Of a stretch of DNA of 64,000 nucleotides, positions 1-51,821 are shown one piece after another (the stretch's first letter is position 1; each line of letters begins with the position of its first letter). The notes beneath the pieces are model-generated. The model had not been told where the DNA came from. It did not search any database and was given only the letters and a program-made list of their open reading frames with translations. The position numbers were made by a program, and so were the translations under genes. The stretch is from Candidatus Hadarchaeales archaeon. GTDB lineage: Archaea > Hadarchaeota > Hadarchaeia > Hadarchaeales > Hadarchaeaceae. The stretch is taken from positions 1 to 64,000 of the forward strand of contig JAWCLG010000003.1 in the NCBI GenBank assembly GCA_038851075.1, given 5' to 3'.

Positions 1-75
1 CGTCGCTGGACAAGGTTTCACCGATACAGTTGGGTTCGCACCCTAGTATCGCTACTAGGGGGGACACTTCGTAGT
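1..75 (-). mobile_element. Putative group I intron in 16S rRNA after ~U793 (E. coli numbering); 5' part only
   Basis: The expected ACCCGGGTAGTCC after GGATTAGAT is replaced. P1-like helix GATACT/AGTGTC with a U.G pair at the junction; P2-like hairpin CCCTAGTA-GCGA-TACTAGGG (41-60); P-element-like CTGTATCGGTGAAACC. Confidence 0.75.
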
Positions 76-831
<756 letters not shown>

Positions 832-50395: not shown

Positions 50396-50519
50396 TGGTT
50401 GGCAGCGTATCGGGCTTCCCGCCGGCTTGCGCACGGCAGTACAACCTCGATCGCTGGCGGGCTTAACTTCCGGGATCTGACGGGACCGGGTGTCACCCCG
50501 CCGCTATGGCCGCCAACCA
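50396..50519 (-). rRNA. rrf: 5S rRNA (not linked to the 16S gene)
   Basis: GGCGGCCATAGCGG, CACCCGGTCCCG, GAAGTTAAGCC, GTACTG; terminal helix TGGTTGGC/GCCAACCA. Confidence 0.93.
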
Positions 50520-50560
50520 AGTATGAGGTCTTGTTCAGACCGGTTAAAAAGATTGTCGGA

Positions 50561-50678
50561 TGGTCCCGCGGGGGAGATTTGAACTCCCGACATGTCGGTT
50601 CCTATCTTTTTTGGGTCTCTGGCCCGCCTTCCATATGGCGAACAGCCGACCACTCTAACCAGGCTGAGTTACCGCGGG
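50561..50678 (-). tRNA. tRNA-Tyr(GTA) with two BHB introns: 23 nt at 35/36 (50619-50641) and 17 nt at 37/38 (50600-50616)
   Basis: C1-G72 and A73 (archaeal Tyr identity), encoded CCA; splicing gives GTCGG-CTGTAGA-CCGAC. Confidence 0.88.
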
Positions 50679-50711
50679 ACCAATTAAGTTTCTTCTCTAA
50701 TTTCTTAAATA

Positions 50712-51821
50712 TCATCCCATGAACACGTGCAGTCTTCTCAGGGCGTCCAGTTTTTCTCTTTGCCCGATACCGGCAGATTTAACCGCATCTCCCAGAATTT
50801 CTATCGTTCTCTGATAAGTTATTTTGTCTACCGGGTATGGAACACCGTCCTTACCTCCATGTGCGAAGCTGAACTTTACAGGGTCTTTCCATGAGGGCGG
50901 TTTTCCGTAAATTAGATCGGAAACTAGCGCCAGCGCTCGCACGGCTTTTGGACCTATACCGCGGATGGCAACAAGCCCCTCGTAGTTCTCGGGCTGAAGC
51001 TCGTATGCTCTCTGCAAAGCCGCGAGCGTTTGCTCCGTCAGCTTAGTTATCGCGTGAGAGGTTGGCATCACAAGCTTCGGCACTTTGGGACTTCTTTGAT
51101 CAAAATATTCATCGAGGGAGCGCTGTTCCGCCTCGCGCACGTATGGCAGCAAACGCTTCGGGTTGTCCCGAACCAAATCTACGCAGGTCTTGCGCGTTTC
51201 TTCACTATCCCGCGCGGTCATGTCCAACACCACTTCCTCGCTTCGGTCACCAATGATTCCAGAGTGAGGTTCCTCCACGAAACTTTTCACCCCTTCGAAG
51301 AGCCAGTGGTAACGCCTGGCCATTTGCCCGTGCATCCCCTGCTGTATCACCGCCCAGTCTCCGTTCTCTGTGAAAATGAAAACGTGATGATAAAGCTGAT
51401 AACCATCTTGGACGCAGGCGCTGTCGACCTTTGCAGCCATCCTGCTCGCATGCTTTAACCTATCGATCGTATGCGAGGAGAGGGAGAAAACATCACCGGC
51501 CCTTTCAATTTCCTCAGGCGTGAGTCTCGATGTTCTTCCCTTTCCTCCGCACACGGATATCCCAAGCTCCTCCGGTCTTATCGCCTCTTTCAGAGCCCCA
51601 CAAACGGTCGTTGTAAGTCCGGAGGAATGCCAGTCAAAACCGAGGGTGCATCCAAGAGCCTGAAAGAAAAAAGGATCCCCGATTCTTCTCAAAAATTCCT
51701 CTTGACCATACTCAAGAACTATCGCCCGACATATTGCTTCGCTAAGGCATTTCATTCTCTTGAAGAGCCACGGCGGACATCTCCCTCCGTGAAGGGGCAG
51801 TTCAGCGATACCGGATTTCAT
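50712..51821 (-). CDS. DUF763 family protein
   Basis: LPLHGG..PPWLF.RM, GFDWHSSG.TT, QDGYQLYHH, FSFAHGGKDGVPYPV. Confidence 0.88.
   Translation of the reverse strand: MKSGIAELPLHGGRCPPWLFKRMKCLSEAICRAIVLEYGQEEFLRRIGDPFFFQALGCTLGFDWHSSGLTTTVCGALKEAIRPEELGISVCGGKGRTSRLTPEEIERAGDVFSLSSHTIDRLKHASRMAAKVDSACVQDGYQLYHHVFIFTENGDWAVIQQGMHGQMARRYHWLFEGVKSFVEEPHSGIIGDRSEEVVLDMTARDSEETRKTCVDLVRDNPKRLLPYVREAEQRSLDEYFDQRSPKVPKLVMPTSHAITKLTEQTLAALQRAYELQPENYEGLVAIRGIGPKAVRALALVSDLIYGKPPSWKDPVKFSFAHGGKDGVPYPVDKITYQRTIEILGDAVKSAGIGQREKLDALRRLHVFMG

Follow-up and report, generated by a model that had tools for sequence, protein, structure and literature searches.

Pre-tRNAs with multiple introns that leave in a nested, ordered fashion were reportedly described from Thermoproteales by Sugahara et al. 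in 2007 and by Tocchini-Valentini et al. in 2009. In the portions of two reviews available to us (PMC4033280, PMC4390854), archaeal tRNA genes, mainly those of Thermoproteales, are said to contain as many as three introns, and the accessible text of a third paper states that some of these genes have nested introns, in which the last BHB forms only after the others have been processed (PMC3978253). Multiple BHB introns removed in a reproducible order, with the 37/38 intron last, are also reported for nuclear pre-tRNAs of Cyanidioschyzon merolae, a eukaryote with a different endonuclease, in the part of that study available to us (Soma et al., 2013, PMC3728597). Disrupted tRNA genes have been reported from the same class of archaea as the organism considered here, namely from Hadesarchaea archaeon YNP_N21, whose EndA is an alpha4 enzyme with an L3 loop; the available text connects this EndA with a rise in disrupted tRNA genes (Kaneta et al., 2018, PMC5829648). 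That text gives the proportions of disrupted genes in a figure only and contains no tRNA-Tyr, 35/36 intron, 2-nt exon or splicing order.

The gene that we analyzed resembles the Thermoproteales pre-tRNAs in having several BHB introns, the last BHB being predicted to form only after earlier removals (PMC3978253, PMC4090602, PMC4390854, as far as their available text goes). From the same partial sources, two cuts and one ligation per step by EndA and ligase, and genes that escape standard finders, are also features in common. It differs in that its two introns lie 2 nt apart rather than one inside the other, in that Hadarchaeota have a single alpha-type EndA unit whereas Crenarchaeota have an (alpha-beta)2 enzyme, and in that one intron, at 35/36, sits inside the anticodon, a position absent from the list in the accessible part of PMC4090602, which ends in 'etc.'. 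In C. merolae, according to the available sections of PMC3728597, each BHB folds independently and the order tracks motif stability, whereas here the second motif would need the first splice. A 35/36 intron, a 2-nt exon and a tRNA gene with four BHB introns were not found in the literature searched, a provisional result because the primary Thermoproteales papers and the supplements of Kaneta et al. were outside its scope. Ordered multi-intron splicing is already known from Thermoproteales, and Hadesarchaea are already flagged for disrupted tRNA genes; what is notable here is the intron inside the anticodon, the 2-nt exon and the relatives with four predicted introns. An earlier note on this DNA had called the arrangement unusual for a euryarchaeal-type lineage, which is only partly new: the lineage is indeed different from Thermoproteales, but Hadesarchaea had been singled out before, in the available text of Kaneta et al. 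(2018, PMC5829648).

All coordinates below are positions in the window, that is, the whole 64,000-nt stretch of DNA analyzed, which corresponds to C3:1-64000 of the source genome (G000; 1.009 Mb in 29 contigs, an assembly 88% complete). The source is a hot-spring Hadarchaeota (Hadesarchaea) archaeon, and the other G numbers denote relatives within a set of 66 Hadarchaeota species genomes. The sequence comparisons and structural modeling described below make it highly probable, in our judgment, that the minus-strand gene at 50561-50678 is the single functional tRNA-Tyr(GUA) of this genome, with BHB introns at 35/36 and 37/38, only A36-G37 between them, and sequential splicing.

The 118-nt extent of the gene follows from its sequence, a cloverleaf scan of the acceptor, D and T arms, and its orthologs. 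From 50678 to 50561 the minus strand reads CCCGCGG TA ACTC AGCCTGGTTA GAGT G GTCGG, then 47 nt, then CCGAC ATGTC GGGAG TTCAAAT CTCCC CCGCGGG A CCA. The gene is complete in its acceptor stem (C1-G72), D arm, T arm, discriminator A73 (50564) and encoded CCA (50561-50563), and the two strands of the anticodon stem are spaced 47 nt apart instead of the usual 7. Its 5' exon (50642-50678, tRNA positions 1-35) ends in GGTCGG CTGT (C32 U33 G34 U35) and is followed by the 23-nt intron 1 at position 35/36 (50619-50641). The middle exon, AG (A36 G37; 50617-50618), is delimited by the two BHB cut sites and by the CTGTAGA of 39 genomes without intron 1. The 17-nt intron 2 (50600-50616) occupies the canonical 37/38 position, and the 3' exon (50561-50599) supplies A38, the 3' strand of the anticodon stem, the variable loop ATGTC, the T arm, the 3' strand of the acceptor stem, A73 and CCA. 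The pieces, all on the minus strand, add up (37+23+2+17+39 = 118 nt), leaving a mature tRNA of 78 nt with CCA.

About 21-32 nt upstream of the gene, on the same strand, lies an A/T-rich TATA-like element, ATTTAAGAAATT (50699-50710), likely an archaeal promoter judging from the sequence; TTTAAG/TTAATA elements stand at equal distance upstream of the tRNA-Tyr orthologs. A run of five T on the minus strand (50546-50550), 11 nt downstream of CCA, is likely a terminator. Downstream on the same strand are the 5S rRNA gene (50397-50517), tRNA-Asp and tRNA-Lys(ttt). The 5S gene, among tRNA genes, is unlinked to the 16S rRNA gene, which lies some 50 kb off and is cut by the contig start (window 1-831, model positions 1-811). 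Among the sequencing runs searched, no RNA run covered the tRNA-Tyr locus, and the one metatranscriptome from the same study as the source genome contained nothing over it. A DNA contig from a separate study covers 50522-50732; it differs at three positions, of which one falls in the intron-1 loop, and argues against an assembly artifact at this locus.

We enumerated BHB motifs with a 4-bp central helix, 3-nt bulges and a cut after the second bulge base. In the unspliced gene, the motif for intron 1 is GGTC GGCT GT^T CGCC ATATGGAA GGCG GGCC AG^A GACC, in which the carets mark the cuts. Its outer helix (h) pairs 50648-50651 with 50614-50617, its central helix (H) pairs 50644-50647 with 50621-50624, its bulges are 50641-50643 and 50618-50620, and its inner helix (h') pairs 50637-50640 with 50625-50628 around a loop at 50629-50636, all on the minus strand. 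With bulges GT^T and AG^A flanking GGCT/GGCC and H=4, h=4 and h'=4, this is a strict 4-3-4-3-4 BHB that places the 23-nt intron between U35 and A36. Once intron 1 is gone, the enumerator finds GTCGG CTGT AG^A C CCAAAAAA G ATAG GA^A CCGAC for the 17-nt intron 2, with h formed by 50646-50650 and 50594-50598, H by 50642-50645 and 50602-50605, and the 3' bulge at 50599-50601. Here too the bulges (AG^A and GA^A) flank a 4-bp helix (CTGT/ATAG), and h=5. Under a strict rule of at least 2 bp in each outer helix, intron 1 qualifies and intron 2 falls short at h'=1, a relaxed bulge-helix-loop form. Nearly all 45 orthologs with a 37/38 intron have h' of 0-2, counting four that were outside the pattern of the helix script and were taken from the output of the BHB-rule solver described below. 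Folding of the 78-nt spliced product gives a cloverleaf with the 7-nt loop CUGUAGA, in a layout identical to that of the uninterrupted orthologs.

Strict 4-4-4 motifs are not rare: 774 occur in 2.02 Mb (both strands together, G-U pairs allowed, introns of 12-60 nt), and the chance of one starting within a given 47-nt insert is about 2%. The motif alone is therefore weak evidence, and its significance comes from the orthologs. Further copies of intron 1 were not found in the source genome.

BLAST recovered orthologs of the tRNA-Tyr gene in nearly all of 60 relatives, and two pattern searches placed them in 51 of the 66 Hadarchaeota genomes. The pattern GGYCGGCTGTAGAYC, in which the loop is uninterrupted at 35/36, was found in exactly one copy in each of 39 genomes; in 12 genomes the gene was interrupted by an insert between CTGT and AGA; no genome had both, and 15 had neither. 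The other nine matches to the insert pattern comprised eight that are not tRNA genes and one canonical Tyr gene. Among the 11 relatives that carry the 35/36 intron, the insert has the form NCGCC-NNNN-GGCGGGCCAA, or a version of it with a longer stem (G053), AGACC always follows directly, and the 3' bulge is AAA. The AAA bulge makes the CTGT|AGA junction unambiguous in these relatives, and the AG/AG ambiguity of the source gene is thereby settled in favor of the BHB rule. The base after CTGT in the intron-bearing orthologs is T, A or G; because it varies, it is not under anticodon constraint and is not anticodon position 36. One relative (G050) has a Tyr gene with no intron at all, in the same Tyr-Asp-Lys(ttt) neighborhood, and ARAGORN calls it tRNA-Tyr(gta).

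The exons of the interrupted genes are intact and near-identical to those of the uninterrupted orthologs, and the intron structure is kept with them. When the intron regions of all 12 genes are aligned, the proposed structure pairs 98.3% of cells, compared with 20-50% when the partners are slid. The covariation signal is thin, with two pairs showing changes on both sides, a count reached by 35 of 500 shuffles; most paired bases of the intron 1 structure are exon-constrained or invariant. The h' helix covaries, going from CGCC/GGCG to CGTC/GACG in one gene and to CGCC/GGTG in another and is 9 bp long in G053, and G014 has a C-A mismatch in the outer helix of the first BHB.

These comparisons bear out most of what the earlier note had read from the letters. 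The boundaries that it gave for intron 1, the AG exon and intron 2 (50619-50641, 50617-50618 and 50600-50616) are all reproduced by the enumerator, and its splice sites at 35/36 and 37/38 are borne out by the orthologs, relatives without intron 1 reading CTGT|AGA exactly at the junction predicted for that intron. It had warned that the gene naively reads GTT (Asn), and the varying base after CTGT confirms that this reading is wrong. Its statement that the outer helix of intron 1 borrows bases from intron 2 holds for the source gene but does not describe a need, since in G053, where the 35/36 intron occurs alone, G37-A38-C39-C40 provide the GACC strand of the outer helix.

The body of the gene points to the same amino acid as the spliced loop. 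It has C1-G72 and A73 (CCCGCGG...CCGCGGG A CCA), which we take to be the archaeal Tyr identity set, and it is the only one among the tRNA candidates of the source genome with C1-G72, no other candidate starting with C. The mature anticodon is predicted to be GUA from the two splice junctions, and CTGTAGA is read in 39 orthologs. The Tyr assignment of the earlier note is upheld by the GTA of the orthologs without intron 1, including the intronless copy in G050. On its question whether the genome otherwise lacks a tRNA-Tyr, BLAST found no second Tyr-like gene in the 88% complete assembly. Its expectation of misannotation was also justified: the gene escapes both the Rfam tRNA model and ARAGORN run with default settings, and ARAGORN -i reports a tRNA-Pro(agg) with a 40-nt intron, a label that we rejected as unreliable for these genes, which also receive other odd labels.

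The separate tRNA-Asn envisaged in the earlier note is present outside the window, at C4:27784-27976 on the minus strand, where we reached it via the Asn gene of G050. It carries three BHB introns, of 28 nt in the D arm, 60 nt at 37/38 and 29 nt in the T loop; once they are taken out, a 76-nt tRNA remains, which ARAGORN labels Asn(gtt) and which has A37, G1-C72 and G73. The solver also gave products of weaker motifs with other labels, and this solution was chosen because it is homologous to the G050 gene. Like the Tyr gene, this tRNA-Asn was missed by standard tools (ARAGORN and Infernal). Its 37/38 intron shares an identical stretch of 19 nt with the Asn intron of G050, which belongs to another family, a hint that the intron contains a functional element. 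The tRNA-Asn of G008 was not found among the 39 Infernal matches inspected.

Other searches of the source genome returned little more. A regex scan for anticodon stem-loops (GTT, GTA and others) gave coding-sequence noise only, and nhmmer profiles of half tRNAs added only a Met gene at C4:26569. Genes for tRNA-Phe, initiator tRNA-Met, tRNA-Gly-UCC/CCC and tRNA-Ala-UGC were not found in the 88% complete assembly. By eye, non-canonical and multiple introns are common in the other tRNA genes, among them Lys(CTT) at C6:19964, Glu(CTC) at C23:2817, Met at C4:26569-26680, Gly(GCC) at C7:17398, Gln at C4:22658 and near 23860 on C6, and Leu(CAA) at C3:75921; the tRNA-Trp at C2:93120 has a long intron that resembles a box C/D RNA. 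At contig ends, C3:101477-104972 and C8:40403-43445 carry two versions of a region with tRNA-Pro(GGG), tRNA-Ser(TGA) and rtcB. The C3 copy has a 26-nt insert before the T loop of tRNA-Pro, and its rtcB match is interrupted for about 1.35 kb inside a single long open frame, in an intein-like manner; the C8 copy has neither. The pair could be strain variation or a duplication.

The geometry of the two motifs suggests how the gene would be spliced. In the primary transcript, G26-C29 would pair with G37 and the first three bases of intron 2, and bases 30-33 would pair with GGCC inside intron 1, together forming the strict hBHBh' motif. The splicing endonuclease would then cut at GU^U and AG^A, and RtcB would join U35 to A36. 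With CUGU now adjacent to AGA, the anticodon stem and the CUGU/AUAG helix would form the bulge-helix-loop motif at 37/38, and excision of the 17-nt intron would leave the loop CUGUAGA. The AG dinucleotide would stay attached to the 3' piece during the first round and to the 5' exon during the second; because the 35/36 step would come first, it would never be freed as a fragment. If all four cuts preceded ligation, the dinucleotide would be lost, which offers a possible chemical rationale for the order.

The order itself is supported in silico in every gene that has both introns. In all 11, the central helix of intron 2 can form one or two of its four pairs in the unspliced sequence and three or four after removal of intron 1 (two before and four after in the source gene), and removal of intron 1 lets the 5-bp anticodon stem join the intron 2 helix; the BHB of intron 1 is the same with or without intron 2. 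Of 47 genes given to an exhaustive solver that applies the BHB rule, 44 resolved to the mature Tyr sequence, and the remaining three (G004, G032 and G063) were read by eye. For each of the 10 genes that have both introns and were solved, half of the conceivable orders proved feasible (1 of 2, 3 of 6 or 12 of 24; 1 of 2 in the source gene), G004 being the eleventh such gene, with no solver solution. Every order was feasible in genes without the 35/36 intron. It counts against the model that in the minimum-free-energy fold of the intermediate the GGUC/GACC helix persists in place of the geometry of the second BHB. The introns must almost certainly leave in a fixed order, as the earlier note had proposed. 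The splice junctions are supported by comparative and structural evidence, and the order by in-silico inference.

A different account of the locus would have a single 40-nt intron at the canonical 37/38 position, giving the loop CUGUUCA with an Asn-like anticodon GUU and C37. The unspliced precursor does offer a canonical-site motif of this kind, GTCGG CTGT TC^G ... ATAG GA^A CCGAC (H=4, h=5), in which a cut at TC^G would take out all 40 nt at once, and ARAGORN -i models one 40-nt intron, though as Pro. This account, however, would put a pyrimidine at position 37 and an Asn anticodon on a body with C1-G72 and A73, whereas the genuine Asn of this genome has A37, G1-C72 and G73; we rejected an assignment as tRNA-Asn(GTT) on these grounds. 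It would also make the T, A or G of the orthologs their position 36, and thus give three different anticodons, where orthologs without intron 1 read GTA. Its anticodon-stem fold is less stable than that of the first BHB by 4.6-5.6 kcal/mol (nearest-neighbor; 37, 60 and 75 C). We give it very little credence, but some mis-splicing through the competing motif may occur. No more plausible to us is a decaying pseudogene, with the real tRNA-Tyr in the unassembled 12% of the genome. The assembly, 88% complete, does lack the Phe, initiator Met, Gly-UCC/CCC and Ala-UGC tRNAs and EndA among the genes sought. Yet none of the 12 genomes with the interrupted form has another Tyr-like gene, and three of them (G003 and G008 among these) are 92-94% complete; the exons are intact, as noted above, the BHB is kept with compensatory changes, and the upstream TATA-like element and the Tyr-5S-Asp-Lys neighborhood are conserved.

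Even with both introns accepted as real, their removal might be simultaneous or unordered, if very relaxed motifs are tolerated or alternative folds are sampled. The broad specificity of EndAs with extra loops, those of Hadesarchaea included, would favor this (available text of Kaneta et al., 2018, PMC5829648), as would the 3' bulge of intron 2, which lies beside the anticodon stem and can form already in the unspliced transcript. The 5' site of intron 2 (AG^A), by contrast, lies inside or next to the helices of the first BHB, 25 nt from the CUGU strand, and the one or two central pairs available before the first splice in all 11 genes, together with the AG dinucleotide that four cuts before ligation would free, also speak against it. 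We consider unordered removal quite improbable, and return to a tRNA-Tyr gene with two introns spliced in sequence.

Of the enzymes for such a pathway, RtcB is encoded in the source genome. EndA was not found in its 88% complete assembly in searches with Pfam PF01974 and PF02778, which gave weak matches, or by tblastn with the EndA of two relatives, which gave none; we attribute this to the incomplete assembly. The weak PF02778 match is an ORF beside RadA, read by eye as a putative HAD-type phosphatase, and the weak PF01974 match is a 47-aa frame, and we rejected both. Among 36 relatives of the same family, 33 have PF01974 matches in open frames of about 180 aa, a single one in every genome but that of the same-genus relative, which has two. 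In the EndA of this relative the N and C Pfam domains are both present, and the protein matches 1A79, the alpha4 enzyme of M. jannaschii, along its full length (E = 1e-40). This full-length match agrees with the alpha4 class given in the available text of Kaneta et al. (2018, PMC5829648), and the splicing endonuclease of the lineage would be a single alpha unit of about 180 aa, most likely as an alpha4 homotetramer.

The distribution of the 35/36 intron is patchy. The 12 of 66 species that have it belong to 11 of 20 genera and to 2 families, both states occur in six genera, and the intron is found with or without the canonical 37/38 intron. Further introns are found in the Tyr genes of these genomes at 9/10, 43/44 and 59/60, and the 47 Tyr genes carry none (one gene), one (17), two (13), three (14) or four (two). 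In the two species with four, G006 (L022/L097) and G065 (L099), BHB introns are predicted at 9/10, 35/36, 37/38 and 59/60, and the solver solution is unique; this would exceed the maximum of three given in the published text available to us. In five genomes with a 9/10 intron (G002, G006, G020, G036 and G065), the Tyr gene is preceded by a sequence nearly identical to the six bases that open the acceptor stem (CCCGCG); this may be a leader pairing partner or an insertion footprint. We suggest tentatively, and with some doubt, that the 35/36 element is a mobile or frequently lost BHB intron inside the anticodon of a single-copy tRNA-Tyr, and that Hadarchaeota, whose EndA is a single alpha-type unit, are a second and independent hot spot for the proliferation of tRNA introns.

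For these organisms, the immediate consequence is that their sole tRNA-Tyr is invisible or mislabeled to standard finders, as is the three-intron tRNA-Asn. Since ARAGORN and the Rfam tRNA model fail on the gene, such genomes appear unable to decode Tyr. The patchy occurrence of the 35/36 intron within genera provides a data set for the gain and loss of BHB introns outside Thermoproteales. The intron inside the anticodon and the 2-nt exon together offer a clean experiment of nature on two questions: whether archaeal splicing proceeds strictly by structure and in sequence, and whether an alpha4-type endonuclease handles non-canonical and relaxed motifs. If the tentative reading above is true, no exon that an ordered cut-and-ligate pathway must carry would be shorter than this one of 2 nt.
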